NCBI RefSeq assembly: GCF_003790525.1
Contig: NZ_CP033635.1
Strand: one strand, 5' to 3'
From: Escherichia coli
GTDB lineage: Bacteria > Pseudomonadota > Gammaproteobacteria > Enterobacterales > Enterobacteriaceae
Length of the DNA: 64,000 nucleotides
Both the position numbers and the translations under genes were made by a program. Shown in pieces: positions 3,001 to 28,064 of the stretch. How positions within the stretch are numbered: the first letter of the stretch is position 1; every line of letters begins with the position of its first letter. The notes beneath the pieces were generated by a model, which was not told where the DNA came from, searched no databases, and saw only the letters and a list, made by a program, of their open reading frames with translations.

Positions 3001-6000
3001 CCTGGACACGATCTTTACGGTGGTTACCAGCCCGGATAGCAGCCAGGCGAAAATGTGGGGGCATATGCCGGAAACGGTGACGGCTGAGGACGGTACGGTC
3101 TTTAAACGCCCGCGGTTACTGAAGGAACTGAGCAGTCAGACTGGGCGAACATCAACGCTTGAAGACAACGAAAACTGGGCGTTGTTTAACATTAATTATG
3201 CGAGCTCTTCCACGACGTATAGTGGCTGTGGAACCAACTATATTCCGACTCAGGCCGGTCTGACGTCACTGTTTGCTAATAATGCGGGCAACACCATGAA
3301 AACCGTGCAGGGCTGGCCGGTGGCAACGCGCTATTTGTCCAACACGTCCGACAATGGCAGCATGGAGCAGCGTAACTACAAGGCGGTCGATCTCAGCAAT
3401 GGCACGAGTGCGGCAGTGTCATCAACGGCGCTGCAACTGCTGACCTGTCAGACTACACCGGTAACCACGGTGAGCCAAATCCTGCTGGAAGCGGCAGATC
3501 CGGCGACGCTGGATACCACCTATAACGTGGTAAAAGCGAAAAAAGGCGAAGAATCCGTGGTGCGCGTCACCACCAAAGATGCACAAGGCAACCTGGTGGG
3601 CAATACGGCATTTATCCTGACGCGTGCCAACAGCGTGAGTCGGGCTAATGCATCAGCGACGATGAGCGTGGGCTCGTTGACGGTGACGGATGCCTGGGGC
3701 AATACGCGAAATAATTTCCAGTCGACAAGTGAAACCATTTACGGCGTGACCGGTGCCGACGGGTCAACGACATTGACCCTGAAACAGGATAACAGTACCG
3801 GGTTAAGAACCGATCTCACGGCAAAACTGGATACGTCCAGCAGCGTCAAGGCAACGCTACCGGTGGTCTTTACCGTCGTGACCAGCCCGGATTCGCCAAA
3901 AGCGAATTTTTGGGGACATATGGCCGAAACGGTGGCGGCCTCCGATGGTTCAGTCTATAAACGCCCACTGTTGCTGGCAGAGCTGGCCAACACTGGCGGG
4001 CGACAAATCAGTTCAGAGAACGGGGAAAGCTGGGTACGATTCACCTGGAATCAGTCGACAGATCCTTCTGTAAGCGGCTGCGGCGTTGCGTATATGCCAA
4101 CGTTGGCAGGCCTGCAAGCGTTGTATGACGCTAATAGTGGTAATGCAATGAGTACGGTACAGGGATGGCCGGTAAAAGCGACCTATCTCACCAATACCCC
4201 AAGTGACACGCAAACGGGGAGCCGTTACTACAATGTGGTGCAACTGGATTCTGGCGCAGCCTCGCAAATCACGACGAACACGGGTGTACTGCAAACCTGC
4301 CGTACAACGCCGTTGACGGCTGCCAGCCAGATTACGCTGGAGGCCGCGGATCCTGCGCAATTTGTCAGCATTGACAGCACGCTTAGCGCTGTCAAAGTGC
4401 AGAAAGGCGATAGCGTGCCGATCCGCATTTCGACTAAAGATGCGCAGGGCAATTTCGTCGGCAATACGCCGTTTGCCCTGAAACACGCGAACTCGATCAA
4501 TCGTCAAAATGTGTCGTCATCGCAGAAAGTGTCGGTCACGACGGAGGTGGGTACGACGGTGGATACCAGTGCAACAACCACCCTGTATGGCGTAACCGGG
4601 CCAGACGGAACCACCACGATGACGCTCCGACAGGATGCGTCCACCGGGTTAAGAACCGACTTTTATGCCCTGTTGAACGATACCGGCGTGTCGTCGGACA
4701 CCTTGCCGGTGATCTTTACCGTCATCACCAGCCCGGATACGCCGCTGGCGGCCAACTGGGGCCATATGGCGGAAACCTTTACCAGTAGCGAAGGCGTCAC
4801 CTTCAAGCGGCCTTCCCTCAAAGCTGAACTCTCTGGCGGTACGGCCATAACGGTCAATAATGAAGTCTGGTCGCGCCTGACAGCGGCGGAGAAAGTGGAT
4901 GCCAGCAAGGCCGGGTGTGATGAGACGTATCAACCGCTGGTGAATGACATGCAGGGGTTGTATGCGGATTACCCTAACGGCCAGTTAGGATCGGTGCTCG
5001 GCTTGCCGACGTCTGCCGGGTATTGGTGGGCCTACGACATGATGATGGTTTCTGGCAACTGGACTAATCAGGCATTTTCACCTGTTAATGGTCAGTTGAT
5101 GCAGGCATCGTCCAGCTATACGGCGATCGTGATGTGTCTGGTAGAACCACATACGGAAGCAGCCACAATAGAGCTTACTTCAACGGCGCAGGACGCAGCA
5201 AAATCGGCCAGTAATGGTGGACGACCGAGCGCCGTAGCGAAGAAAGGCGAGACGATTCCGTTGACGGTGACCGTGCGTGATAGCGCCGGGAACCCGATGC
5301 CATATGCTGAGTTTACCCTCACGCGTGAAACGACGCTGGATCGCTCGAAAGCAACCGTTAACACGAGTGCGGACGACCTTACCGTAACGGCATTGGTACC
5401 CGCGAATACAAATAGTGTGTTGGCAGCAAGTGGAGCAAAACTGATCGGCACGACGGGCAGCGATGGCAAAGCGACCTTTGAGGTGAGTCAGAATGCGACG
5501 ACCGGGCTGGCGACGCCGTTAACCGTGACGCTGGCGCGTGATACGACGAAAGCCGCCACGCTGGATGTTATCTATACGGTGATCACCAGCCCGGATTCGC
5601 CGAGTGCGAAATTCTGGGGGCATATGCCGGACACCTTTACCAGCTCGACGGGCGTCACCTTCAAACGACCGCTGCTGAAAGCAGAAACCAGCTCAGGCTC
5701 ATCGATTAGCTCTAACGGCGAAGTTTGGTCATATATGAGCAACGCGCAAAATTTAACATCGACAGATTGCCCGCTCGAAAATCAACCGCGCAGTAATGAG
5801 CTGTTGGATTTGTATAGTGATCACCCGAACGGCACGCTAATGACCGACCTGGGGTTACCCGTATATGCAGGTAACTGGTGGGCCTATGATATGGTCATGC
5901 TGAGTGGAACGTCGTGGACTTATCAACTCATCAGCCTGAAAGACGGAACCATTACGCAGAAGGGGACAACCAGTGCGTTGATGCTTTGCCTGGCACAGCC

Positions 6001-7684
6001 GCATCCGGCCGGCGTCAGCGTAACATTGACGTCATCCGCACAGGATGACGCCAGAACCACCAGCAATGGCGGCCGTCCCAGCGCGTCAGCGAAAAAAGGT
6101 AACTCAATACCGATTGTGGTAACGGTAAAAGATCGTGATGGCAACCCGTTGGCGGGCGAAGCGGTGACGCTCAAACGTGATTCAGCGTTGAGCCGTTCAG
6201 GAACAATCGTGGGGACGCCAGCGAATGAAATAAAGTTGACGGAACTGACGCCCGTGTCGGCGACATTCCCGCTGGTTTCAAATGGTACACAATGGCTTGG
6301 TTTCACCGGTAGCGATGGTACGGCGACATTCAATGTTGAACAGCCTGATACTGTCGGCCTGGCAATCCCCTTTAACGCCATCCTGGCCCGTGACACGGCA
6401 AAGGTATCTACTCTGGATCTGATTTTTACCGTCCTCACCAGCCCGGATGCCGCATTAGCAACTTACTGGGGCCATATGCCGGATACCGTCACGGCGGAAA
6501 ACGGTGCTGTCTTTGAGCGCCCTAAACTGTGGAAAGAGCTGCCGTCGACATCCGGGGTAAGTCAGATAACGAATAGCAATGAAGCCTGGCCAGTGTTTAA
6601 CGCAACGCAGAGGGCTGACAGCAATCTCAGCCCTTGTGAAGCGGCGCGTCGACCATTGAGCGATGATTTAGAAGCGCTCTATACACGTTATCCAGGAAAC
6701 ACGATTACCGCGCAAATTGGCTGGCCTACGCAGTATGCATGGTGGGCGGTGGATAACTGGGAAGGGGGCAGTAATCCGCAGGCCGTCAGCCTGGTAAATG
6801 GTTCGAGAGGCCAATATAATCCCGCTCATCAGGCCTGCCTGGTTAACCCGCGTGCGAGCGTTTCCAGCGTCACGCTGACATCAACGGCGCTGGATGACGC
6901 CACACAGGCGGCGACGGTGAAAAAAGGCGACGCCGCGCCCATTGTCGTTACCGTAAAAGACAGCGCCGGGAAGCCGGTGCCGAATATCGCTTTTATCCTA
7001 AAACGCGGTGAGGCCGTGCCGCGTAACAGCGGGGCGACGCTGTATGGCGATGTGGATGCGATGGACGATTTGACTGTGCAACCTTCATCCGGTGCGGCAG
7101 TCACGTTGGCTGACAGTGGAAATACCATCGACGGAGTCACGGGAGCGGACGGTACGGCAAGCTTTACCGTTCGTCAGGATAATACGCCAGGATATAAAAC
7201 GCCGTTGACGGTGACGCTGACGGATAACGCCACCATAACGGCGACGCTGGACACGATTTTCACCGTGCCGACCAGCCCGAATGTCGCCACGGCGTATTTC
7301 TGGGGTCATATGGCGGATACCGCCACGGTAAGTGGCAAGACGCTGCATCGCCCGCTATTAAAATCGGAGTTGCCGTCAGGCGCTACCGCAGCAGCAACGC
7401 CTGATGTAAATAATGAAACCTGGGCACTGGCGCATGTTATGGATTCCTCTAAATGGGATGTCGCGCAGCAGTGTGGCAGTATGAATAACGTGCCGAGCAG
7501 TGCCGAATTACAAACATTACACTCCGGCTTTAGCACATTGGGATGGCCGTCCTCGATAAGCTTCCCGTATTTATCTACTGATAAGGCTGGGTCGTTCTAT
7601 TGTGGTGTTGATGAAGGCTCTGGCAGTCTCAACTGTGGCATTCAGCCTGCGAAAACGCCGGGGTTTGCAACCTGCTTCCAGTAA
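1..7684 (+). CDS. giant surface adhesin, 5'-truncated by window edge; tandem Big_1-like (invasin/intimin-type) repeats; RatA/RatB/SinH-like
   Basis: Reading frame is open from position 2 to stop at 7684 (ORF track starts at a GTG at 65). About 9 repeats of ~280 aa each end in a TSPD-x5-WGHM motif (e.g. [35 protein letters not shown]). Lies next to xseA, where such adhesin loci occur in enterobacteria. Confidence 0.6.
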
Positions 7685-12571: not shown

Positions 12572-13822
12572 GTGCTTACCGATACAAAATTAAAGAACCT
12601 CAAGCCACAGGACAAACTGTACAAAGTTTCCGATCGTGACGGGCTGTATGTAGCTGTGCTTACGTCAGGTACGGTCTCGTTTCGCTATGACTACCGTATC
12701 AACGGTCGCCGCGAAACACTGGTAATCGGGCAGTATGGGCGTGACGGTATCAGCCTGGCAGAAGCGCGAGAAGAACTGATTGCTGCAAAGAAGCTGCTTA
12801 AAGCAGGCCAGTCGCCGGCTGCGGCTAAACGTGACGGTATCAAAAAGATTCGTGGTGCCGAGACGTTTGCGGTACATACCGACAGTTATATGAAACACGT
12901 CATCCTGGCTGAAAGTACCCGCGCAATGAAGCAGGCAGTGATCGACCGTGACATACTTCCTGTTCTTGGCAACAAAATGATGACTGAAATTACCACATCG
13001 ATGGTTCGTGATTTGTGTGACCGGATTGTCGAACGCGGTGGTCGGGCAACAGCAGTACAGGCCAGGGAGATCATTAGCAGCGTATACCGTCACGCCAATG
13101 ACCGTGGTCATGGTTTGTTTAATCCTGCGGCTGACATTAAACCTTCGTCTATCGCCATATTTAAACCACGAGAGCGAACACTGACACCAGAAGAAATTGG
13201 TCTGTTCTTCCGCACGCTGGATGCCATTGGTGCTATGGGCACTATGAAAATGGCTTTAAAGCTGGTGCTTATCACTATGGTTCGTAAAGGCGAATTCACC
13301 AATGCAACGTGGGACGAAATAGATTTTAAAAAATGGACATGGACAATTCCTTCAGACCGCATGAAGGGAAGCCGGGCGCACGTTATTTACCTGCCAAAAC
13401 AGGCACAGGATATATTGGTTGGGTTGCAGATGTGCGCTGGTGGAAGTGAATATCTGGTTCCTGGTCGTTACAATTTCCGGAAGCCATTATCTAATGCCGC
13501 ACTGAACTCTCTGATCGACAGAACGGTGAAAATAATAAATGAAGATGGTGAGCATATTCAGGGCTTCACCGTACACGATATGCGCCGTACAGCCAGTACG
13601 TTGTTGCATGAGGCTGGTTATCCTTCAGACTGGATTGAAAAGGCTCTGGCACATGAGCAGAAAGGTGTGCGCGCCGTATATAACAAAGCGGAATACGCCA
13701 GACAGCGCGCCTACATGTTGCAGCAGTGGGCCGATATGATTGATTCCTGGATTAACGGGGAGCATACGGATCTAATTCCGTTCTCCCCGTCGAAGTTTGA
13801 GAAGTGGATGGCGGGGGAATAA
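12572..13822 (+). CDS. int: tyrosine-type phage integrase (P4-like family)
   Basis: GTG start; N-terminus MLTDTKLKNLKPQDKLYKVSDRDGLYVAV and C-terminal catalytic region VHDMRRTASTLLHEAGY...AHEQKGVRAVY typical of tyrosine recombinases; adjacent to attL. Confidence 0.9.
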   Translation: MLTDTKLKNLKPQDKLYKVSDRDGLYVAVLTSGTVSFRYDYRINGRRETLVIGQYGRDGISLAEAREELIAAKKLLKAGQSPAAAKRDGIKKIRGAETFAVHTDSYMKHVILAESTRAMKQAVIDRDILPVLGNKMMTEITTSMVRDLCDRIVERGGRATAVQAREIISSVYRHANDRGHGLFNPAADIKPSSIAIFKPRERTLTPEEIGLFFRTLDAIGAMGTMKMALKLVLITMVRKGEFTNATWDEIDFKKWTWTIPSDRMKGSRAHVIYLPKQAQDILVGLQMCAGGSEYLVPGRYNFRKPLSNAALNSLIDRTVKIINEDGEHIQGFTVHDMRRTASTLLHEAGYPSDWIEKALAHEQKGVRAVYNKAEYARQRAYMLQQWADMIDSWINGEHTDLIPFSPSKFEKWMAGE

Positions 13823-18788: not shown

Positions 18789-19001
18789 TTGAAGATAGTA
18801 ACCAGAATGGAGGCCGCAAAAGCCGGGTTAAATCGCTATTTCACAGGAAAGCGGTGCCGTCACGGCCATCTCTCTGAAAGGTATGTTCTGAACGGAACAT
18901 GTGTTGAATGTGCAATGAATAGCGCCAACCGCCATCGTAATGAATTTGCTTGTGCACTAAAGAGTGCAAGAGGGGAAACCTATGGCAAGCAGCTGGATTA
19001 A
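18789..19001 (+). CDS. small Cys4 zinc-ribbon protein (hypothetical), alternative start
   Basis: CRHGH...CVEC pattern; start codon uncertain (TTG). Confidence 0.3.
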   Translation: MKIVTRMEAAKAGLNRYFTGKRCRHGHLSERYVLNGTCVECAMNSANRHRNEFACALKSARGETYGKQLD

Positions 19002-19812
19002 GGTTGAAGTTATCACTCCTGATAAACCTGAAATTTTTCAGATAGCAGAAATTCTGGGTATTGATCCAGATGCTGTTCTTGGAAAGCTGGTTCGTATATG
19101 GGCATGGGCTGACCAGCAAACAATAGACGGTAACGCTGGCAGCGTTACAAAAGGAGTACTTGATAGACTCGCTTTTATTACAGGATTTGCTGACGCCCTC
19201 ATTAGCGTCGGATGGCTTGCTTATCATGACGGCAAACTAATTCTTCCAAACTTTGAGCGACACAATGGAGAATCATCGAAAAAACGTGCACTTACGAATA
19301 GAAGAGTGGCAGAGCATCGAAAACGAGTAACGCAAAAAGTAACGCCAACAGCGTTACAAAAGGAGTTACCAGAGGAAGAGGAAGAGGAAGATATATATAA
19401 AACCCCACACATAGCGCACGTGCGCGAGGGGGCTACGACCAGTGAAGCGAACGGTATGCCGTTGCAGGTGGCTGAACCTGAATTTCTGGATGGCCTGAGT
19501 GAACCCATCGGGAAATTTCCGATGACCGATGACTGGCATCCGTCGCCGGATTTTCGACGGCGTGCTGCGCTGTGGGGAACGGCCCTGCCGGAACCGGAAT
19601 TTACACCTGCTGAACTTGCTGCATTCCGGGATTACTGGATGGCTGAGGGCAAAGTGTTCACGCAGGTTCAGTGGGAACAAAAATTCGCCAGGCACGTAAA
19701 TCATATCAGGGGAAAATCAAAAAACGCCGGGAAAAGCGATGAGCTTGACTGGAATAACACTGACTGGATAGAAGGGGTGTGGGATGAAATCAACTCCAGA
19801 ACTTCTCAATGA
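18982..19812 (+). CDS. phage replisome organiser (lambda O-like role)
   Basis: MASSWIKVEVITPDKPEIFQIAEILGIDPDAVLGKLVRIWAWADQQ N-terminal domain; precedes P-like gene. Confidence 0.6.
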   Translation: MASSWIKVEVITPDKPEIFQIAEILGIDPDAVLGKLVRIWAWADQQTIDGNAGSVTKGVLDRLAFITGFADALISVGWLAYHDGKLILPNFERHNGESSKKRALTNRRVAEHRKRVTQKVTPTALQKELPEEEEEEDIYKTPHIAHVREGATTSEANGMPLQVAEPEFLDGLSEPIGKFPMTDDWHPSPDFRRRAALWGTALPEPEFTPAELAAFRDYWMAEGKVFTQVQWEQKFARHVNHIRGKSKNAGKSDELDWNNTDWIEGVWDEINSRTSQ

Positions 19813-20560
19813 GTACGATCGCTTACGTGAGCATGGTGTTGCTGTGCATGAAGAGCGGCGTGACAGCAATGGCAAAAAGGAGCAGGTCGCTAGAATTTTC
19901 AATGAACTATTTGTCCAGTTACAGGCTGCATTTCCCGCAAGCGTTTCGACCATAAGGGAGCAGAACAAACTTAATGAATTCCGTAAGCAATGGATGCTTG
20001 CGTTTCTGGAGAATGGGATCACAACAATGGAACAGGTTAACGCTGGTATGCGCCACGCCCGCGCCAGTGAGTCTCCGTTCTGGCCGTCGCCAGGGCAATT
20101 TATCAAGTGGTGTAAAGACAGCAAGATGGTTCTTGGCGTCACCATTGACGATGTGATGGCGGAGTTTCACCGGTACAGCAAGGAAAAAAGTTTATATCCT
20201 GGTGGTCCCGAAAGATTCCCGTGGCGGCATCCGGTTATGTACTGGGTCGTATGTGATACCCGCCGTGCAATGTATCAGCGCCAGCTTAGCGAGATTGAAG
20301 TTGAGAAACACGCGCGCAGGCTGCTCGATGATTGGGCGAAAAAGGTGGCTTCCGGGCAGCAGATACCCGATCCGGTGATCAGCATACAGGCAAAGCCAGA
20401 ACCCATGAGTACGCCTCCGGACACAGGGAGAGACGTTTACCACCCGCCAGGGCGAAGTTTCGGGTGCATGCCTAACGCCGCCACCCTTGGGGGAATAACA
20501 CCGGCTCAGTGGCTGATGGAGGAATACAGGCGGGGAAAGGCGGCAGGATTTATCAAGTAA
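19784..20560 (+). CDS. replication protein P-like (DnaB helicase loader)
   Basis: Segment FPASVSTIREQNKLNEFRKQWMLAFLENGITTMEQVNAGMRHAR closely resembles lambda P as recalled. Confidence 0.7.
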   Translation: MKSTPELLNEYDRLREHGVAVHEERRDSNGKKEQVARIFNELFVQLQAAFPASVSTIREQNKLNEFRKQWMLAFLENGITTMEQVNAGMRHARASESPFWPSPGQFIKWCKDSKMVLGVTIDDVMAEFHRYSKEKSLYPGGPERFPWRHPVMYWVVCDTRRAMYQRQLSEIEVEKHARRLLDDWAKKVASGQQIPDPVISIQAKPEPMSTPPDTGRDVYHPPGRSFGCMPNAATLGGITPAQWLMEEYRRGKAAGFIK

Positions 20561-20597
20561 TACCAGCGCGATAGCGCATTTTTTTACGCCTTGATAA

Positions 20598-20612
20598 TTA
20601 CCTGTAGGGTAA
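20598..20612. promoter_or_regulatory. TTACC-N5-GGTAA operator-like site (perfect)
   Basis: TTACC TGTAG GGTAA. Confidence 0.5.
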
Positions 20613-20659
20613 CAAAATATTCTAAACTCTATTGATTTCGTGTCTTATGTGGTTTTTAA

Positions 20660-20674
20660 TTACCTCAGAGGTAA
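20660..20674. promoter_or_regulatory. TTACC-N5-GGTAA operator-like site (perfect), ends 4 nt before ATG 20678
   Basis: TTACC TCAGA GGTAA; GAGGT half doubles as SD. Confidence 0.5.
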
Positions 20675-20677
20675 ATC

Positions 20678-21022
20678 ATGAGAAAACAGATACAGGCTCT
20701 TGGTCGACTCAAAACAGGCCAGATGAACAAAACAGAATCTGCGTATTGCCAGCACCTTGAGCTGCGTAAACGTGCAGGGGAAATCGCCTGGTATCGATTC
20801 GAGGGTATCAAGCTGCGGTTAGCTGACAACACGTTCTATACGCCCGATTTTGCTGTGATGCTCGCCACCGGCGAGATGGAACTGCACGAAGTGAAAGGTT
20901 TCTGGACCGACGACGCTAGGGTGAAAACCAAAGTCGCCGCAGATCAGTATCCGTTCCGAATCATCGGGGTAACGGTTAAACCAAAGAAAGCAGGTGGTGG
21001 CTGGAACATCGAAGAGTTCTGA
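20678..21022 (+). CDS. small phage protein (DUF1064-like, uncertain)
   Basis: 114 aa; MRKQIQALGRLKTGQMNKTESAYCQHLELRKRAGEIAWYRFEGIKLRL. Confidence 0.4.
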   Translation: MRKQIQALGRLKTGQMNKTESAYCQHLELRKRAGEIAWYRFEGIKLRLADNTFYTPDFAVMLATGEMELHEVKGFWTDDARVKTKVAADQYPFRIIGVTVKPKKAGGGWNIEEF

Positions 21023-21083
21023 ATCGACGATCTTTTTAGTTATCAATGTAATCAATAAGTTATGTGGATAAGCGAGGGTAAAG

Positions 21084-21626
21084 ATGGAAAGTAATATCAA
21101 AGGGTTAGTTGCCGCCGGGCATGAGATGGCTTCGGAACTGAAAGCTGAATGTGGTGCCGTTGATATGCGTAGTGTGGCAAAGCTGCTCAGCGATTTGGCA
21201 ACGCAACTGGAAGTGCAACTGGTGCGTGCTAATGCGCTGGCCGAAGACCAACAGAGAGCGATTGAGTCAATTAAGCAGGCTGATTCGGCTGTTAAGTTGG
21301 CACACAAGAAGTTTTCGGAGCTGGCAGCGGAGAATGCGGCACTGAAGGCTGCGCACCCTCAACCATTCGGACCTGAGATGATGAAGGCTCTTGATGCGTA
21401 TGAGAAGTATCAGGATGAAGTGCCGGAGACTGGGATGCTCAATGCATTTTTCATCTTGCGCGACAGTATCCGTGTTGACACCCCAGCCACCGACGCTTTC
21501 CTAGCTGAAGTTCGAGCGCAGGGTGTAGATATGGCAGCTTGCGCCCTTGATAACGTAAACCAGTTCAATTACGCAAACATGCTCGATGATTTAGCGCAGA
21601 AGATTCGCAAAGGAGTGCAGTCATGA
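21084..21626 (+). CDS. hypothetical coiled-coil protein
   Basis: 180 aa ORF with SD; stop overlaps next ATG. Confidence 0.4.
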   Translation: MESNIKGLVAAGHEMASELKAECGAVDMRSVAKLLSDLATQLEVQLVRANALAEDQQRAIESIKQADSAVKLAHKKFSELAAENAALKAAHPQPFGPEMMKALDAYEKYQDEVPETGMLNAFFILRDSIRVDTPATDAFLAEVRAQGVDMAACALDNVNQFNYANMLDDLAQKIRKGVQS

Positions 21627-21808
21627 AAAACCGTAAAGCCAAAATCATCGTTCTTCGCGCTCTGAAAAACTGCTACCCGCGCCAATGGCTGAATGTAAGC
21701 AATCGACGCATGGTTCTCTTCACGCTAGGTGGTGTTAGCCGTGAAGGGCATCAATTCAAAAACAGCGCAGCACAGAATCGCTGGAAGAATCATGCGAGGT
21801 TCCAATGA
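21623..21808 (+). CDS. small basic protein, MKNRKAK family copy A
   Basis: N-terminus MKNRKAKI and C-terminus SAAQNRWKNH shared with copy C; synonymous differences in the shared C-terminal codons. Confidence 0.4.
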   Translation: MKNRKAKIIVLRALKNCYPRQWLNVSNRRMVLFTLGGVSREGHQFKNSAAQNRWKNHARFQ

Positions 21809-21914
21809 GCAATATCGACAAGCGGCCTCTACGTGACAAGCTGTCACCGTATGACACAGAAGAGATGCTTGAGGCTATGCGTATTTTTCTGTAAGAACAG
21901 GGAGGTGAGCAAAA

Positions 21915-22232
21915 ATGACGATCACAAAACAACGGGTAGAAGAAATCATATCCCGCATTGAAATGTATGGGCATGGCGCAGGGTATACCGCCGAAGAGGT
22001 TTATGACCTGGCTGTACTGGCGCTGAATTTATCAAATATCGCAAAACTCAAGCGATACGAGCTTGATATGGATGGTTGTGACTCGTTCGGTCAGGATTGT
22101 GGCGCTGACATGACTGAAGATTCTGATGGCGATTATGTCCTGTTTGATGACGTGGTTAAGTTGTTTGAGTTTGATACAACCACTCAGAAGATAGAAAGCC
22201 CAGCAAAGGAGGCAACCAGTGAGCAAGATTGA
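21915..22232 (+). CDS. hypothetical acidic protein
   Basis: 105 aa ORF, SD GGAGG upstream. Confidence 0.35.
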   Translation: MTITKQRVEEIISRIEMYGHGAGYTAEEVYDLAVLALNLSNIAKLKRYELDMDGCDSFGQDCGADMTEDSDGDYVLFDDVVKLFEFDTTTQKIESPAKEATSEQD

Positions 22233-22773
22233 CTATCAGGCACTGCGTGAAAAGGCAGAGAAAGCAACGTGTGGTGTATGGTCGATCGAATATGGAGAGA
22301 GCCGATTTGATGGTGATGATGCGTTAATTCACCGTGAAGTTGCTGGATATATTCCCATTTGCAGAATTGAAGGAGCGCATCCTGAAAGCGGTTTCGATGA
22401 AGATTTCCAAACTGAACAGCAGGCCAATGCTGAATTCATCGCCGCAGCCAATCCGGCTACTGTGCTGGCGCTTCTGGATGAACGGGAAAGAAACCAGCAA
22501 TACATCAAACGCCGCGACCAGGAGAACGAGGATATTGCGCTAACGGTAGGGAAGCTGCGCGTTGAGCTGGAAGCCGCAGAGAAGCGCATAGCAGAACTGG
22601 AAGCGCGGGAAATACTGCTCCCTGAACGTAGCAGCATGCTTCATCGAACAGATTTTCACGATGATTACCAAACGGTAATGGCATACAAAGTTTCTGAAGT
22701 CATCGATGCAATCCGCGCTACTGGCATTTGCATCAAAGGAGACGCAGGAGAGCAAAACGATGAAAAACCGTAA
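22219..22773 (+). CDS. Ead/Ea22-like early protein (uncertain)
   Basis: Contains NAEFIAAANPATVLALLDERE segment typical of this family as recalled; coiled-coil C-terminus. Confidence 0.45.
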   Translation: MSKIDYQALREKAEKATCGVWSIEYGESRFDGDDALIHREVAGYIPICRIEGAHPESGFDEDFQTEQQANAEFIAAANPATVLALLDERERNQQYIKRRDQENEDIALTVGKLRVELEAAEKRIAELEAREILLPERSSMLHRTDFHDDYQTVMAYKVSEVIDAIRATGICIKGDAGEQNDEKP

Positions 22774-22936
22774 AGCAAAATTACTTCTTTTATCGCGTTC
22801 GACGGGGTACGAGAAGCTACCAATCAGCAATCACAAACGGGCGGTGATCGGCATGTTTGGTAGGGTGGTATTCGCATTTAACTATAAACCCACCGCGTCG
22901 CGGAACAGACGAGAGAAGGGGTACGCAGTGCGATGA
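22760..22936 (+). CDS. small basic protein, MKNRKAK family copy B
   Basis: Starts with conserved ATGAAAAACCGTAAAGC; overlaps upstream gene end. Confidence 0.3.
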   Translation: MKNRKAKLLLLSRSTGYEKLPISNHKRAVIGMFGRVVFAFNYKPTASRNRREKGYAVR

Positions 22937-23124
22937 AAAACCGTAAGGCAAAGATGCTGATAGCAAAGCCCGGGCAGCGTATCCGTATCTCAAATCGGCT
23001 TGTTATTTACTATAGATATCTGGGTTTTAGGGGGTGTTCCTCTATTCGTTTTTACGGTGTCTGGCGAAACAGAAGCGCAGCACAAAACCGCTGGAAAAAC
23101 CACTTTCGCACTAAAGGAGAGTGA
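22933..23124 (+). CDS. small basic protein, MKNRKAK family copy C
   Basis: MKNRKAKM...SAAQNRWKNHFRTKGE. Confidence 0.4.
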   Translation: MKNRKAKMLIAKPGQRIRISNRLVIYYRYLGFRGCSSIRFYGVWRNRSAAQNRWKNHFRTKGE

Positions 23125-23125
23125 T

Positions 23126-23875
23126 ATGACCACTTTCACCGACAAAGAACTGATTAAAGAAATCAAAGAGCGTATCAGCAGCCTGGACGTTCGAGACAAT
23201 ATTGAACGCCGGGCTTATGAAATTGCACTGGCATCGCTGGAAGCAGATCCAGTTGCTTATATTTTCAAACATCCGGCCGGGAAATTATTCTGGGCTTTGA
23301 CGGATGAAAGCAATAAAGAGCAATCGGACGTTATTCCTGTTTATGCCGCCCCTCCAGTGCCAGTAGTACCTGAAGAAAAACCAATGCCTAACCCTCTTAA
23401 AATGTACGCGGTCGATGCTGTTGCCGCTATTGCAGAGGTGAGAGGCTGGAACGCCTGCCGCGCCGCCATGCTTCAGGCCGAACCTGTAAGTAATAGTGAT
23501 GAGTTACCGCTGGACTATCTGCAAGGACACAAAGACGGCCTGGAGTGGGCTGCACAATTGGCAGAAGCCAATCATCCGCAAACAGGTGACTGGTTGTACG
23601 ACGACCCAATCGATCTTGCCAGGGCGATTCGCAAAGGTCCTGATATGCCTACTGTTCAGGCTGGCAACTATCCGGTAACTCCGGATGGTTGGATAAGCTG
23701 TAGTGAGCGAATGCCCGCTCAAGATGATTGGATTTTTATTTATTCAAAGCACGGCGAGTATATGGCAGGACAGGTACAAGGGGAATACGTGGAGTTGAGC
23801 GACGGCACTTTATCGTGGTTAGGGAACGCCTTGTACTGGATGCCTCTACCGGAACCGCCGCAGGAGGTTAATTGA
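23126..23875 (+). CDS. DUF551-like phage protein
   Basis: Start MTTFTDKEL with SD AAGGAGAG; C-terminus GEYVELSDGTLSWLGNALYWMPLPEPP. Confidence 0.45.
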   Translation: MTTFTDKELIKEIKERISSLDVRDNIERRAYEIALASLEADPVAYIFKHPAGKLFWALTDESNKEQSDVIPVYAAPPVPVVPEEKPMPNPLKMYAVDAVAAIAEVRGWNACRAAMLQAEPVSNSDELPLDYLQGHKDGLEWAAQLAEANHPQTGDWLYDDPIDLARAIRKGPDMPTVQAGNYPVTPDGWISCSERMPAQDDWIFIYSKHGEYMAGQVQGEYVELSDGTLSWLGNALYWMPLPEPPQEVN

Positions 23876-24159
23876 TGGTCTCCTTCGCGAAATATACGAT
23901 TATTGACTGGATAGCATTCATTCAGGTTTTGCTCATCTGGTTTTATATGGCTTACAGGAGTGGACAGTGGATTGTCAGTGTAGCCTGTAGCAATGGATGG
24001 CGTTGGTGGAACCGAAAGAATAAAAAAGCGCTGGCCTTGGCTTCGTTTTACGAAGCATTCAATCTTAACAGTCTTCAGCCTGGTTCTGTCGTTGTAGTCA
24101 CCACTCAAAGCGGCATGACGATACAAATTCACAAGCCAAAGGAGGAAGGTCGTGGCTAA
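23872..24159 (+). CDS. hypothetical small membrane protein
   Basis: 95 aa, hydrophobic N-terminal half. Confidence 0.3.
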   Translation: MMVSFAKYTIIDWIAFIQVLLIWFYMAYRSGQWIVSVACSNGWRWWNRKNKKALALASFYEAFNLNSLQPGSVVVVTTQSGMTIQIHKPKEEGRG

Positions 24160-24433
24160 CCTGCAACTTGCCGTTAAAGGTGAATACTTCGATGCCATGA
24201 TTCGCGGGGAGAAAACGGAAGAGTATCGCCTGTGTAATGACTACTGGAATAAGCGAATTATGTTCCGCGAGTATGACCGCCTGATTATCACAAAGGGATA
24301 TCCGAAGCGCGACGATTCCAGCCGCAGAATTGACGTCCCGTATGACGGATATGAAATCAAGACAATCACACATCCGCACTTCGGCGATAAACCGGTAAAG
24401 GTGTTCGCTATAAAGGTGAATATTGATGGCTAA
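24152..24433 (+). CDS. ASCH-domain protein
   Basis: 93 aa; GEYFDAMIRGEKTEEYR matches ASCH GxKxxExR signature. Confidence 0.5.
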   Translation: MANLQLAVKGEYFDAMIRGEKTEEYRLCNDYWNKRIMFREYDRLIITKGYPKRDDSSRRIDVPYDGYEIKTITHPHFGDKPVKVFAIKVNIDG

Positions 24434-24764
24434 ATCAGCAGCAGAGCGCAAAGCCGCGCAGCGCGCTCGGCAGTCCGCCGCCGGTGAGCGCAAAATTGAA
24501 CTGGTGCTGGATAAGCAGGAGCAGGAAATGCTGGCGCGGAACTGCGCCGCCCGGCGCCCTGGTCACGATCCCTATGAAATGGCCGAGTACATCGCGCTGC
24601 TGATCCGCCAGGATGATGCACGTGTGCGCGGGCGTATAAAATCGATCAGTAGAAAACGTTGCGGTAAGTGCGGCGAGAGAGTTCCAGTTAATTCATGTCC
24701 GTGTAATGGTGACTCGCAATGCTGGGTGACTAAAGGCTGGCATGAAACGAAATTAATAGTGTGA
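24423..24764 (+). CDS. small zinc-ribbon protein immediately upstream of the late operon (candidate late regulator)
   Basis: C-terminal CGKCGERVPVNSCPCNGDSQC cluster; stop codon lies inside GTGACATGTCAC palindrome. Confidence 0.35.
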   Translation: MMAKSAAERKAAQRARQSAAGERKIELVLDKQEQEMLARNCAARRPGHDPYEMAEYIALLIRQDDARVRGRIKSISRKRCGKCGERVPVNSCPCNGDSQCWVTKGWHETKLIV

Positions 24765-24772
24765 CATGTCAC
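24761..24772. promoter_or_regulatory. 12-bp perfect palindrome GTGACATGTCAC (copy 1)
   Basis: Identical copy at 44886-44897. Confidence 0.4.
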
Positions 24773-24813
24773 GAGTAGATTATGCATGATGAATTTGATG
24801 GGTTTTGAATACT

Positions 24814-24839
24814 GCCGCCAACTATGGCGGCTTTATTTT
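24814..24839 (+). terminator. rho-independent terminator at end of early/replication region
   Basis: gccgcca acta tggcggc hairpin then tttatttt. Confidence 0.55.
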
Positions 24840-24850
24840 GCATGGTACTA

Positions 24851-24865
24851 TTACCACAACGGTAA
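24851..24865. promoter_or_regulatory. TTACC-N5-GGTAA operator-like site (perfect) upstream of terminase small subunit
   Basis: TTACC ACAAC GGTAA; degenerate second copy at 24869-24883. Confidence 0.5.
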
Positions 24866-24882
24866 CTATTACCACGGTGGTT

Positions 24883-25479
24883 ATGATGCCTGCTGAACCT
24901 AAAACCTATAAACGCAAATCAACGCAATTTAAGCCGCTCACAGCAATGCAGGAGGCTTATTGCCAGTCATACATCAAAACGCCTGAAAACCAGACTCAGG
25001 CAGCGATTAACGCAGGATTCTCCCCAAATACAGCGGCAGTTAAAGCCAGTGTCATGATGCGCGATGAACGCATTCAAAAACGGATTGCCGAGTTGATGGA
25101 GGAGCGCAACAAACGAATGCGCGTCAGTGCTGATTACGTTCTCATGCGCCTGGTGGAGATCGACCAGATGGACGTGATCGATATCCTCAACGACGATGGG
25201 AGCCTTAAACCAATCCGTGAGTGGCCGAAAATCTGGCGCACTACGCTTAGTGGCTTTGATCTGTCATCGACCATCATGAACATGAACGAGGATTCGATAG
25301 AGACAATCCTCAAAAAAATTAAATGGCCTGACAAGGTGAAGAACCTCGAACTGATTGGTAAGCACGTCGACGTTAACGCGTTCAAAGAACGTCTGGATGT
25401 TAATGTGAATGTGACAATTGCTGATCGCATAGCAGCAGCCAGGAAGCGACTCAAAGAACGTCAGGATGGTAATCAGTGA
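24883..25479 (+). CDS. terminase small subunit
   Basis: Start MMPAEPKTYKRKSTQFKPLTAMQEAYCQSYIKT...; directly precedes terminase large subunit. Confidence 0.6.
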   Translation: MMPAEPKTYKRKSTQFKPLTAMQEAYCQSYIKTPENQTQAAINAGFSPNTAAVKASVMMRDERIQKRIAELMEERNKRMRVSADYVLMRLVEIDQMDVIDILNDDGSLKPIREWPKIWRTTLSGFDLSSTIMNMNEDSIETILKKIKWPDKVKNLELIGKHVDVNAFKERLDVNVNVTIADRIAAARKRLKERQDGNQ

Positions 25480-26950
25480 CAGATACAGCGTTATCTCCTG
25501 AAGAGCAGTTGATCGAGGATATTGCAGGGTTCACTCACGATCCGCTTGGCTATGCCCTCTATGCGTTCCCGTGGGGGAAGAGGGTACTGAACTGGCACAT
25601 GCCACCGGCCCACGTCAGTGGCAGGCTGATGCGTTCCGAGAGATACGTGATCACCTGCAGAATCCAGAGACGCGCTATCAGCCGCTTATGCTGGCACGCG
25701 CTTCTGGTCACGGTATTGGTAAATCCGCATTCATCTCAATGCTGATCAACTGGGGCATGTCCACTTGCGAGGATTGTAAGGTCGTGGTGACCGCCAACAC
25801 CGACAACCAGCTACGAACTAAGACCTGGCCGGAAATTATCAAGTGGTCGAACCTTGCTATCACGAAAGACTGGTTTACCTGTACCGCTACCGCGATGTAC
25901 AGCAATGATCCTGGGCACGACAAGCGGTGGCGAGCTGACGCAATCCCTTGGTCTGAGCACAACACTGAGGCATTCGCCGGACTACACAACGAGCGTAAAC
26001 GCATCATCGTGGTATTTGATGAAGCGTCGAACATTGCGGATCTGGTGTGGGAAGTTGCCGAGGGTGCGCTAACGGACGAAGACACTGAGATTATCTGGGT
26101 GGCGTTCGGAAACCCTACACGTAACACCGGACGTTTCCGCGAATGTTTCCGCAAATATAAACACCGCTGGAAAACTGCGCAGATTGACAGCCGAACGGTG
26201 GAAGGCACTAACAAACAGCAGTTGCAGAAATGGGTTGATGACTACGGGGAAGACAGCGACTTCGTTAAAATCCGTGTGCGCGGCATATTCCCTGATGCAT
26301 CTGAATTGCAGTTTATCCCTACCGGTCTTACTGATGAGGCAATGAAACGGGTGGTGACCGCTGCGCAGGTGGCGCATGCTCCGGTGATAATCGGTGTTGA
26401 CCCGGCATATTCAGGCGTTGATGACGCGGTGATATACCTGCGGCAGGGGCTACACAGTAAGGTGCTGTGGACTGGCAACAAGACTACCGACGATCTGATT
26501 ATGGCGAAGCGTATCGCTGACTTTGAAGACCAGTATCAGGCTGACGCGGTGTTCATCGACTTCGGTTACGGAACCGGTTTGAAGTCAATCGGTGATGGCT
26601 GGGGACGTACATGGCAACTTGTTCCGTTCGGTGGCGCGTCTACTGACCCGCAGATGCTCAACAAGCGTGGGGAGATGTTCAACTCATGCAAGACATGGCT
26701 GAGGCTCGGCGGCATGCTGGATGACCAGGAAACTGCAGACGACCTGTCGGCGGCAGAGTACAAAGTTCGTGTGGACGGTAAAATCGTTATCGAACCGAAG
26801 GAAGATATCAAAGAGCGGCTTGGGCGTTCGCCTGGTAAAGGCGATGCGCTACTGCTGACGTTTGCTTTCCCGGTGTCAAAGCGCCTGCGACTTCCCGGGC
26901 AGCAGAACCAGCAAGGCAAGGCGCTTACCGAGTACGATCCATATGCTTAG
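25476..26950 (+). CDS. terminase large subunit; frame changes (-1) in a G5 run at 25573-25577, so either frameshifted or it starts at GTG 25571
   Basis: Walker A ASGHGIGKS in frame of 25571-26950; upstream 32 codons (GTG 25476, overlapping terS stop, SD AGGA) are in the other frame. Confidence 0.7.
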
Positions 26951-27765
26951 TCTTTATTTTTATCCTCGAAACCTGATAATCCAGATAGAACACCAAAGTT
27001 ATTAAAAACGTTTGGCTTACCAGATTTTAATCCGGATAAGTTGTGTTGCTCCAAAAAGTTACTAATTGTTTGGCCGTTGCCAAGTGCAAGGCTTTTTATT
27101 TGAGATTTTTCAGGGTATTTGAGTTTGTATTCGTCGAAATCATTTTGGAGGGTCTTATATGCCTCATTCATTCTTCCAAGAGTTTCCGATATCTCTTTTA
27201 ATGAATGATTTAGAGCTGCTAACTGAGCACTGGCGGATCTCAATTCGTCATCTTTAGCTTTCAACTCGGCAGTCAATTCACCCATACTATTCTTTGATCG
27301 AATAATCTCTTCTTTCATCTCTTGGATGTCTTTTTCCGCGCCAGTCTTAACTTTGTCGTATGTAACATCTTTTTTAGCCAATAACCTCTGCAGTCTTGTT
27401 TCACGCTGGATTTTTCTTGCCTTCAGGTGATTTTCGATTGAGTCATTATTATCAAGAGGCTTTGCTTGCCATACGTTAATGATATTGTTTACCCATGGTA
27501 ATAGGCAGCAGATAGCAATTACAGATAAGCATGGATAAAACATAACAGTTTTCCATGTGCTGTTATCTGAGATATATGAAATTTTATCTATTATGTTTGA
27601 TTTGCTAAAAAATAGATAAAGAATTGATTTCCAGTTGAAGGCGCACCAGGACATAACAAAAGCACCAAGCACAGGGTTTTTGGCTCGATTCACGGCAGTA
27701 TTGGCAGTAGATAAAAACAGCTCTTTGAACGATTCAAACATGCTAATTACCTTGAAGTTTTTCAT
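26947..27765 (-). CDS. membrane-anchored coiled-coil protein, antisense to the packaging/structural genes (candidate accessory or exclusion protein)
   Basis: Start MKNFKVISMFESFKE; two hydrophobic segments then long coiled-coil; AT-rich; own upstream palindromic motif. Confidence 0.5.
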   Translation of the reverse strand: MKNFKVISMFESFKELFLSTANTAVNRAKNPVLGAFVMSWCAFNWKSILYLFFSKSNIIDKISYISDNSTWKTVMFYPCLSVIAICCLLPWVNNIINVWQAKPLDNNDSIENHLKARKIQRETRLQRLLAKKDVTYDKVKTGAEKDIQEMKEEIIRSKNSMGELTAELKAKDDELRSASAQLAALNHSLKEISETLGRMNEAYKTLQNDFDEYKLKYPEKSQIKSLALGNGQTISNFLEQHNLSGLKSGKPNVFNNFGVLSGLSGFEDKNKD

Positions 27766-27769
27766 GATT

Positions 27770-27784
27770 ATACCTTTAAGGTAA
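27770..27784. promoter_or_regulatory. TTACC-N5-GGTAA-like site (ATACC TTTAA GGTAA) immediately upstream of minus-strand membrane protein gene
   Basis: Core palindrome TACCTTTAAGGTA. Confidence 0.45.
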
Positions 27785-27901
27785 TTTGCGGTCATCAAGC
27801 AAAAAAATGCCCGGCGAACCGGGCGAACTGGAAGCAATGAGTTATGCCTTCCGTGGCTGTACGGGTTTACAGCATGAAGTCATCGCAATGGCGTCCTGCT
27901 G

Positions 27902-27987: not shown

Positions 27988-28064
27988 TGGCGCGGCATGC
28001 AGGATTCGAACCTGCGACCAACCGCTTAGAAGGCGGTTGCTCTGTCCAACTGAGCTAATGCCAC
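27988..28064 (-). tRNA. tRNA-Arg (anticodon UCU), phage-encoded
   Basis: 77-nt cloverleaf folded by hand: acceptor GUGGCAU/AUGCCGC, D-stem GCUC/GAGC, anticodon stem ACCGC/GCGGU with loop CUUCUAA, T-arm GCAGG-UUCGAAU-CCUGC, encoded CCA. Confidence 0.85.

Follow-up and report, generated by a model that had tools for sequence, protein, structure and literature searches.

Comparison at the DNA and protein levels demonstrates, as far as sequence can, that three small open reading frames (ORFs) on the plus strand of the window (the whole 64,000-nucleotide stretch of DNA that was analysed) are genuine protein-coding genes. These ORFs, here called copies A, B and C, are by the same comparison old paralogues within one narrow family of very basic phage proteins of about 60 residues. 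We consider it probable that the locus as a whole is best explained by protein-coding paralogues of the family phrog_1380, with gene ends that lie on mosaic junctions and with a putative accessory role linked to nucleic acids.

Copy A (21623-21808, from the ORF list) encodes 61 amino acids (MKNRKAKIIVLRALKNCYPRQWLNVSNRRMVLFTLGGVSREGHQFKNSAAQNRWKNHARFQ) with a pI of 12.0. Copies B (22760-22936; 58 amino acids, pI 11.6) and C (22933-23124; 63 amino acids) form a tandem pair, in which B is the upstream and C the downstream partner. Together the three products span pI values of 11.6-12.0, with 14-17 lysines and arginines against 1-2 aspartates and glutamates. Each ORF opens with a copy of the 17-mer ATGAAAAACCGTAAAGC. 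The preliminary description of this DNA reported the 17-mer at three sites; it is exact at 21623 and 22760, while the copy at 22933 carries one mismatch that had gone unreported, a synonymous AAA>AAG change (AAGGC). Allowing up to two mismatches, no further copies were found on either strand of the window. By chance 0.02 matches were expected, and three or more matches occurred in 0 of 100 dinucleotide shuffles. Copy B has the variant motifs ISNHK and TASRNRREKGYAVR, and copy C has a 6-residue insertion in its middle. A six-frame profile search of the whole window recovered exactly copies A, B and C, the next best match having an E of 0.18.

The three genes map between the replication genes and the terminase of an integrated prophage of the phiV10/epsilon15-like (Uetakevirus-type) kind, in the accessory part of its early operon. 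The prophage around them encodes an integrase, a replication initiator, a P-like loader, a DUF1064 resolvase, a terminase, a portal protein, a major head protein and a tail fibre, and the locus is syntenic with phiV10. Family members have the same early accessory, co-oriented setting in phiV10, VT2-Sakai, RCS47 and Sasha. Within the operon, A, B and C adjoin Eae-like, Ead/Ea22-like and DUF551 genes so closely that stops and starts overlap, in line with the earlier statement that each copy overlaps or abuts the upstream gene. The gene upstream of copy A (21084..21626, plus strand, 180 aa, ending ...RKGVQS*) is an Eae-like accessory gene, which matches phrog_492, phrog_614 and phrog_250 and is syntenic with phiV10 p46, the 'eae-like protein'. 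Its TGA overlaps the ATG of copy A (ATGA), 9 nt downstream of AAGGAG. The stop of copy A overlaps in turn the ATG at 21805 of a 29-aa plus-strand ORF (21805..21894; MSNIDKRPLRDKLSPYDTEEMLEAMRIFL), which represents a tiny gene or else the remnant of a junction; its MSNIDK start is that of Ead/Ea22-like genes in other loci and of 16 out of 108 downstream neighbours of family members.

The first 14 nt of copy B lie inside the 3' end of an Ead/Ea22-like gene (22219..22773, plus strand, 184 aa), which matches phrog_250 and phrog_368 and is named 'ead/Ea22-like family protein' by PGAP in homologous loci. The last codons of this gene, GAT GAA AAA CCG TAA, form the start of copy B in another frame and read ...DEKP*; tails in ..DEKP were found in 14 upstream neighbours of family members. 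A frameshift fusion of the Ea22-like gene with copy B at GATGAAAAACC was considered and dropped, as the -1 frame meets a TGA immediately. The ATG of copy C overlaps the TGA of copy B (again ATGA), and the tail codons of copy C (...ACT AAA GGA GAG TGA) carry the Shine-Dalgarno motif of the next gene. This DUF551-type accessory gene (23126..23875, plus strand, 249 aa; ATG at 23126) matches phrog_60 and phrog_5117, is called 'DUF551 domain-containing protein' by PGAP in the related locus L086, and would be translationally linked to copy C by the ribosome binding site (RBS) in the copy C tail. The expression signals comprise upstream Shine-Dalgarno motifs and overlaps (ATGA or 14 nt) with neighbouring genes. 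All three genes may be translationally coupled to the genes around them. At the RNA level, an Rfam search of positions 20000-25000 returned nothing at E<=1. Minus-strand terminator-like hairpins in the C block (21783-21768 and 23093-23078) were rejected: they need GCA codons, which are GCG in most homologues, and thus they are not conserved.

Next, we examined whether selection acts on the proteins, as the preliminary description had argued, or on a repeated DNA element. The C-terminus SAAQNRWKNH is common to A and C, and as described its codons differ only at synonymous third positions, with five such differences (cag/caa, aat/aac, aag/aaa, aat/aac and cat/cac) and no replacement. Over all conserved blocks, A and C have 8.0 differences over 8.3 synonymous sites and 0 over 42.7 nonsynonymous sites. 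Whole-gene dS between the window paralogues is saturated or 1.7. Among 69 distinct homologous genes, MKNRKAK is invariant except for one K2>N change, although alternative codons, two to three each, are used at N3, R4, K5, A6 and K7. In 756 homologue pairs the median dN/dS was 0.47 and all values were below 1. Pooled by region, dN/dS was 0.08, 0.62, 0.28 and 0.64, the first three values being those of the N-terminal block, the middle and the C block. The eight synonymous differences against none that change the protein, and the very low ratio in the N-terminal block, thus uphold the argument for selection on the protein. Taken together, these patterns indicate purifying selection at the amino-acid level on MKNRKAK, a central SN(R/H)(R/K) and the C-terminal SAAQNRWKNH, with a middle that evolves fast. 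Synonymous divergence in the N-terminal block is somewhat below that of the middle (pS 0.25 vs 0.37), which leaves room for some constraint at the nucleotide level, for example from translation initiation, the overlap with the upstream gene or recombination.

That the three ORFs are paralogous small coding genes, as first proposed, is further supported by their full-length matches to a single profile. The search for a MKNRKAK...AAQNRWKNH family, a check proposed with that claim, led to the PHROG family phrog_1380, labelled there as of unknown function. Its 62-position profile is matched end to end by copy A (E 6.7e-29, residues 1-61 on profile 1-60), copy B (E 5.8e-23, residues 1-58 on profile 1-60) and copy C (E 5.5e-13, residues 1-63 on profile 1-62). 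The family motifs, M-K/N-N-R-K-A-K at the N-terminus, S-N-R/H-R/K in the middle and S/T-A-A/S-Q/R-N-R near the C-terminus, are all present in A, B and C, and the SNHK and TASRNRR variants of copy B are common to other family members that stand upstream in a tandem. The family is narrow, with 48 cluster representatives among 1.84 billion proteins, and all named matches are enterobacterial. It is carried in one to three copies by Stx phages, phiV10-like, P1-like (RCS47) and Sasha-like phages and the Vequintavirinae phage Av-05. The exact protein of copy A was found on 289 contigs, always under the name 'hypothetical protein', and the Stx-type protein on at least 1000; throughout the family, members are so named or are not annotated.

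Known members of phrog_1380 (among them phiV10 p50 and p51, VT2-Sakai orf8, Min27 ORF09 and Sasha gp78) share with A, B and C the motifs, the size and the place beside Ead/Ea22-like genes, and nothing essential differs in the window prophage. Tandem copies exist in phiV10 too, whose annotators recorded the likeness of p50 and p51 to each other and to VT2-Sa p08. The paralogy is old, and it had been noticed before. An A-type copy in addition to the B and C pair brings the window to three. The 82 related loci have one copy in 55 cases, two in 25 and three in only one, L060, where they stand in tandem.

Searches outside the family gave little. The only Pfam match, Inhibitor_G39P at E 0.13, was noise; NCBIfam gave no matches, PADLOC defence models none at E<=1 and a profile search of PDB sequences none at E<=10. 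An AFDB match named '50S ribosomal protein L36' (66 aa, 36% identical to copy A) was taken to be a misnamed family member and not a ribosomal protein. Two longer PHROGs, phrog_12350 (155 aa) and phrog_9263 (230 aa), were discarded as domain fusions, since they apparently reflect an ORF that was called too long (VT2-Sakai orf8) and read-through of frameshifts (e.g., P0069), and so offer no functional information. The supplements of an EHEC Sakai ribosome-profiling paper (PMC5597208) contained neither peptide motif, and a literature search returned no paper that mentions a family peptide or its accessions. Several database variants of the family are frameshifted or truncated, from which it follows that the gene is clearly dispensable and decays frequently.

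The three-copy state of the window arose by mosaic assembly of two cassettes, one of A with its neighbours and one of the B and C pair, and not by recent duplication. The B and C pair is present at 98.8% identity, unannotated, in a prophage of E. coli 702/18 that lacks A, and the A cassette (window positions 21476-22250) is present at 99.6% in another prophage, in E. coli JX2. More widely, 10 body types of the gene combine with 31 upstream and 33 downstream flank types, and homology between differently flanked loci stops 0-27 nt from the ATG and 0-21 nt from the stop. A conserved ...cttcgcaaaggagtgcagtcATGA precedes A-type genes in loci with otherwise differing upstream genes, such that the tail codons and RBS before copy A form a conserved junction common to otherwise unrelated upstream genes. 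At the other end, the C-terminal tail correlates with the downstream gene; the ..AVR tail that copy B has (YAVR in 26 of 28 copies) invariably stands before a further member of the family. One body type occurs with either tail (L058_3822 ends in ...AAQNRRKKGYAVR and L074_632 in ...AAQNRWKNHLRTKGE), which implies crossovers inside the C block. Since the tail tracks the downstream gene, the ends of the family gene double as recombination junctions, and its last codons travel with the gene downstream. The last 4-6 codons and the first codons also lie on mosaic junctions and on the RBS or stop of a neighbour, and the nucleotide conservation is therefore partly a matter of dual use.

These junctions raise the question of whether the conserved blocks might be DNA-level linkers that promote homologous recombination between mosaic phage genomes, with the ORFs incidental to them. 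Comparative papers on HK97/HK022 and HK620 reportedly describe conserved boundary ('linker') sequences at gene junctions of mosaic lambdoid phages, and here too short conserved stretches at gene ends coincide with points where homology starts or stops. The abrupt ends of homology near the ATG and stop, the exchange of tails on one body with the crossovers in the C block that it implies, the correlation of tail with downstream gene and the reduced pS of the N-terminal block would all be in keeping with such linkers. Unlike lambdoid linkers, however, the conserved stretches lie mostly inside a protein-coding gene and are kept at the amino-acid level: invariant residues use different codons, and the differences between the A and C blocks are all synonymous. 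A linker lacking a conserved ORF, which the preliminary description had set against its own reading, is not what was found, as the ORF is intact in 109 copies (the 82 related loci plus the window). If the blocks served recombination alone, nucleotides and not the reading frame would be preserved, and therefore the conserved frame with its excess of synonymous substitutions counts against a pure linker. The junction role is real but secondary to coding; as the sole explanation the linker is largely refuted, and we regard it as quite improbable. A second cis-acting role is even more doubtful, namely that the ORFs are translated spacers with a functionless peptide, which keep ribosomes on the polycistronic early mRNA (through coupling and protection from Rho-dependent polarity) and carry the RBS and stops of their neighbours. 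The overlap or abutment of every copy with its neighbours, the Shine-Dalgarno motif encoded in the copy C tail, the fast middle (dN/dS 0.62) and the common frameshifted variants agree with it. Nevertheless, a spacer does not account for seven N-terminal residues, SNRR and a 10-residue C-terminal motif upstream of the RBS codons that are conserved across five phage lineages with synonymous turnover, nor for two paralogues with the same predicted fold.

That fold was the basis for a further alternative, in which the proteins would be degenerate modules for RNA binding, like HicA or a dsRBD, and would work as mRNA interferase toxins or bind RNA. Independent AlphaFold models of copies A and B (pLDDT 75 and 77) both consist of a helix, three strands and a helix, the secondary-structure order of HicA toxins and the dsRBD fold, whose size and charge are similar as well. 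At their first hairpin, B-type copies have the SNH of E. coli HicA, and HicA family entries stood at ranks 12 and 48 of the Foldseek search. These entries were not significant (E 0.29 and 0.62, TM ~0.39), and the search yielded no significant structural neighbour of any kind. Against an E. coli HicA sequence the hhalign probability was 0.1%, and Pfam HicA (PF07927) was unmatched at E<=10 by copy A or by any member of a 39-sequence alignment that included A, B and C. The catalytic histidine of HicA is not conserved in the family: its position is arginine in most members and histidine in the B type only. Nor was a HicB-like antitoxin identified among the variable neighbours (Ea22-like, DUF551 and small ORFs), as judged by end motifs and annotation. 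Homology to HicA or to the dsRBD was consequently rejected in the absence of significant structural or profile similarity, and this is the least probable of the alternatives.

The charge of the phrog_1380 proteins, their conserved polar residues and the medium-confidence model suggest a putative nucleic-acid-binding accessory early protein. In such a mechanism, the protein would fold as a helix, a three-stranded sheet and a helix, and its conserved surfaces rich in Asn, Arg, Lys and Gln might bind nucleic acid, or a host machine that handles nucleic acid, early in infection. It would be a dispensable accessory factor, with the variable middle tuning specificity between paralogues. The lambdoid exo-xis and nin small proteins (lambda Orf60a, Orf61, Orf63, Orf73, Ea8.5 and NinE) are likewise small, early, dispensable and encoded between recombination or replication genes and later modules, and models of several of them point to DNA binding or RNA-polymerase binding (PMC8614690). 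In Stx phages, a family member lies directly 3' of the ea22 homologue, inside the exo-xis region. Pfam, PDB and PHROG searches found no sequence relationship between the two groups, and the family is not among the proteins covered in that paper (PMC8614690). The family is spread over at least five unrelated enterobacterial phage lineages (Stx lambdoid, Uetakevirus, P1-like, Sashavirus and the Vequintavirinae phage Av-05). A bolder and unlikely proposal is that these very basic proteins of about 60 residues, with their predicted helix, three strands and helix, form a new class of host-directed effectors. Their invariant termini would then attach to a conserved host machine that acts on nucleic acids (such as the ribosome, RNA polymerase or a nucleoid protein). 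The fast middle, of which one genome keeps up to three divergent versions, would be the product of an arms race, in which the protein might, for instance, inhibit a variable host defence or serve as its decoy.

The significance of the three genes is modest: A, B and C are further members of a known, little-characterised family and leave current concepts unchanged. Part of their interest lies in annotation. The family gene is unannotated in the 933W record, PGAP left the B and C pair unannotated in E. coli 702/18, and in the VT2-Sakai record the gene is over-extended to 155 aa, an error that appears to have seeded the separate, probably artefactual phrog_12350. Very many prophages of E. coli and Salmonella carry the family, among them the Stx2 phages 933W and VT2-Sakai, and the exo-xis region affects the choice between lysis and lysogeny and, through it, the release of toxin (PMC8614690). 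In conclusion, the locus is an example of conserved protein termini that double as mosaic recombination junctions, and the family is a well-defined candidate for small-protein functional study.

The 17-mer ATGAAAAACCGTAAAGC occurs exactly at positions 21623 and 22760 of the window, and a third copy, at 22933, differs from it by a single synonymous substitution (AAA to AAG). No further copies with up to two mismatches were found on either strand of the window. Three such matches compare with a chance expectation of 0.02, and that number was reached in 0 of 100 shuffles. The 17-mer opens three plus-strand ORFs beginning with MKNRKAK, namely A (21623-21808, 61 aa), B (22760-22936, 58 aa) and, with the mismatched copy, C (22933-23124, 63 aa). 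When the window was translated in all six frames and searched with a family profile, only these three were recovered. The preliminary description had reported the recurrence, and also that each copy overlaps or abuts the gene upstream; both observations hold. The ATG of A overlaps the TGA of an ORF at 21084-21626; the first 14 nt of B encode, in another frame, the end of an Ead/Ea22-like ORF at 22219-22773 (GAT GAA AAA CCG TAA, DEKP and stop); and the ATG of C overlaps the TGA of B. A good Shine-Dalgarno motif lies 9 nt 5' of the start in A and B, while that of C is weaker and purine-rich.

The genes belong to a phiV10/epsilon15-type prophage, integrated and complete, comprising an integrase (12572-13822), a replication initiator (18964-19812), a P-like loader (19784-20560), a DUF1064 resolvase (20678-21022), a small terminase (24805-25479), a gene matching the PHROG 'head-tail adaptor' family phrog_332, a major head protein and a tail fibre. 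A, B and C lie in its accessory run (21084-24764), tightly packed among Eae-like, Ead/Ea22-like and DUF551 genes. A mechanical ORF list draws the DUF551-type gene at 23000-23875 (+), overlapping C from a TTG start at 23000; the plausible start is the ATG at 23126, with AAAGGAGAG just 5' of it. In a frameshift variant, P0069, C is fused to the DUF551-type gene. Elsewhere in the prophage, a tRNA-Arg (anticodon TCT; 27988-28064, minus strand), which may be a moron-like insertion, lies inside the packaging/head module and is adjoined by a 296-aa minus-strand ORF (26947-27837). Upstream of the integrase is a 2539-aa ORF (65-7684, plus strand), presumably a giant surface protein of the host.

The preliminary description had interpreted the ORFs as paralogues under selection on the protein rather than as a DNA repeat. 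To this question we brought a codon alignment of 109 family genes, representing 69 distinct sequences, that were taken from the window and 82 related loci. MKNRKAK is invariant in the 69 distinct sequences except for one K2 to N change, despite alternative codons at N3 (AAC 59, AAT 10), R4 (CGT 63, CGC 5, CGA 1), K5 (AAA 63, AAG 6), A6 (GCA 55, GCT 9, GCC 5) and K7 (AAG 36, AAA 33). The C-terminal block SAAQNRWKNH follows the same pattern, its residues kept with alternative codons; as had been noted, it is common to A and C, with five synonymous differences and zero replacements. Over both conserved blocks, A and C differ by 8.0 synonymous changes in 8.3 sites and by 0 non-synonymous changes in 42.7. 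Whole-gene dS among A, B and C is saturated or 1.7, and they are therefore old paralogues, not recent duplicates. Across 756 homologue pairs (0.05<pS<0.6), median dN/dS was 0.47 with all values below 1. Pooled by region, dN/dS was 0.08 in the N-terminal block, 0.62 in the middle, 0.28 in the C block and 0.64 in the last few codons. Since pairs of this kind are not independent, the figures are descriptive, yet the pattern they show is unambiguous. A DNA linker kept without ORF conservation was looked for as the alternative and not found; codon turnover at invariant residues and the block-wise dN/dS support selection on the protein. We are highly confident that A, B and C are real protein-coding genes under selection.

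All three match phrog_1380 (62 positions, unknown function) end to end (A, E 6.7e-29; B, E 5.8e-23; C, E 5.5e-13), and searches of Pfam, NCBIfam, PADLOC and PDB sequences gave no significant match for the family. It has a narrow spread: of 1.84 billion cluster representatives searched with a profile, 48 matched at E<=1e-3. The source names met in the homology search and in cluster look-ups are all enterobacterial, and all read 'hypothetical protein' or 'prophage protein'. Public collections already contain identical proteins, with A on 289 contigs and B and C on 95 each. Annotated relatives include Sasha gp78 and phiV10 p50 and p51, whose record itself points out their likeness to one another and to VT2-Sa p08. 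Other members are misdrawn or missing: VT2-Sakai orf8 (L083 3222-3689) is an over-extended 155-aa ORF, to which the separate phrog_12350, probably an artefact, appears traceable; the original 933W record (AF125520) leaves a member unannotated between L0068 and L0069 (L088 about 3766-3951); RCS47, a P1-like phage, has a tandem pair of which one copy is unannotated (L084 3001-3186); and PGAP left members unannotated in E. coli 702/18 (L086 1925-2453). The carriers are temperate phages and the Vequintavirinae phage Av-05, which has a 69-aa relative, and placement is always among early/accessory genes.

The ends of the genes coincide with mosaic junctions. Ten gene-body types are found in combination with 31 types of upstream flank and 33 of downstream flank; where the flanks of two loci differ, similarity ends 0-27 nt on the 5' side of the ATG and 0-21 nt past the stop. 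The protein tail tracks the downstream gene: after a terminal AVR (YAVR in 26/28 copies) the next gene is always another family member; after RFQ, an MSNI(DK) Ead/Ea22-type start follows in 16/17; and after TKG(E/D/A) come other genes, whose ribosome-binding site is the tail codons AAAGGAGAG. Since one body type is found with either tail (L058_3822 versus L074_632), crossovers take place within the conserved C block. The 29-aa ORF MSNIDKRPLRDKLSPYDTEEMLEAMRIFL (21805-21894, plus strand), which overlaps the stop of A, starts with MSNIDK as do full-length Ead/Ea22-like genes of other loci, and resembles a leftover of mosaic recombination, either a truncated gene or a relic of a junction. Another small and very basic ORF, about 58 aa long and with RRRAKR as its last residues, such as phiV10 p49 (L001 3076-3252), accounts for 34/105 upstream neighbours of family members in related loci; it is absent from the window and has no detectable relation to phrog_1380.

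Tandem pairs occur in 25/82 related loci and a triple in L060 only. The E. coli 702/18 prophage is 98.8-99.5% identical to the window on both sides of segment 21523-22202 (the end of the Eae-like gene, A, the 29-aa ORF and a 105-aa phrog_3126 gene), which is replaced there by 207 nt (L086 1324-1530), with B and C retained. E. coli JX2 has window 21476-22250, 99.6% identical, in a prophage unrelated to this one (L087 1201-1975). Judging from these alignments, the three copies are a mosaic of two cassettes, and the A cassette, about 0.7 kb long, is a clear case of a cassette exchanged recently.

AlphaFold2 predicted for A (39-sequence alignment) a helix at 4-15, strands at 20-24, 29-34 and 39-44, and a helix at 49-59 (mean pLDDT 75), and for B (35-sequence alignment) the same order (mean pLDDT 77). 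This order of helix, three strands and helix resembles dsRBD and HicA. Structure search gave HicA entries only at E 0.29-0.62; hhalign assigned a probability of 0.1% against an E. coli HicA sequence; the putative catalytic His position is Arg in most family members; and the neighbours, judged by end motifs and annotation, include no antitoxin-like partner. For these reasons we do not place the family with HicA or dsRBD. The proteins are strongly basic (pI 11.6-12.0; 14-17 Lys+Arg versus 1-2 acidic residues), and the invariant positions, nearly all Asn, Arg, Lys, Gln and Ser plus one Trp, map to the N-terminal helix, first hairpin and C-terminal helix. Given this charge, the polar invariant residues and the early/accessory placement across phages, the likeliest mechanism, which we put forward tentatively and at less than even confidence, is that the protein would bind nucleic acid, or a host machine that handles it, and serve early on as an accessory factor that is dispensable.

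A, B and C add a new case to a family that is known though uncharacterised. Public annotation already shows this family, its occurrence as tandem paralogues and its link with Ead/Ea22-like genes. Literature searches with the peptide and accessions yielded no mention, nor did the supplementary files of a ribosome-profiling study on EHEC (PMC5597208), and a review of exo-xis proteins (PMC8614690) does not treat the gene. The preliminary description is confirmed in its observation and supported in its interpretation. In conclusion, the phrog_1380 genes are ordinary small phage accessory genes, to which the present analysis adds codon-level proof of selection, termini that double as junctions, a reproducible fold prediction without a known structural neighbour, and a list of annotation errors.
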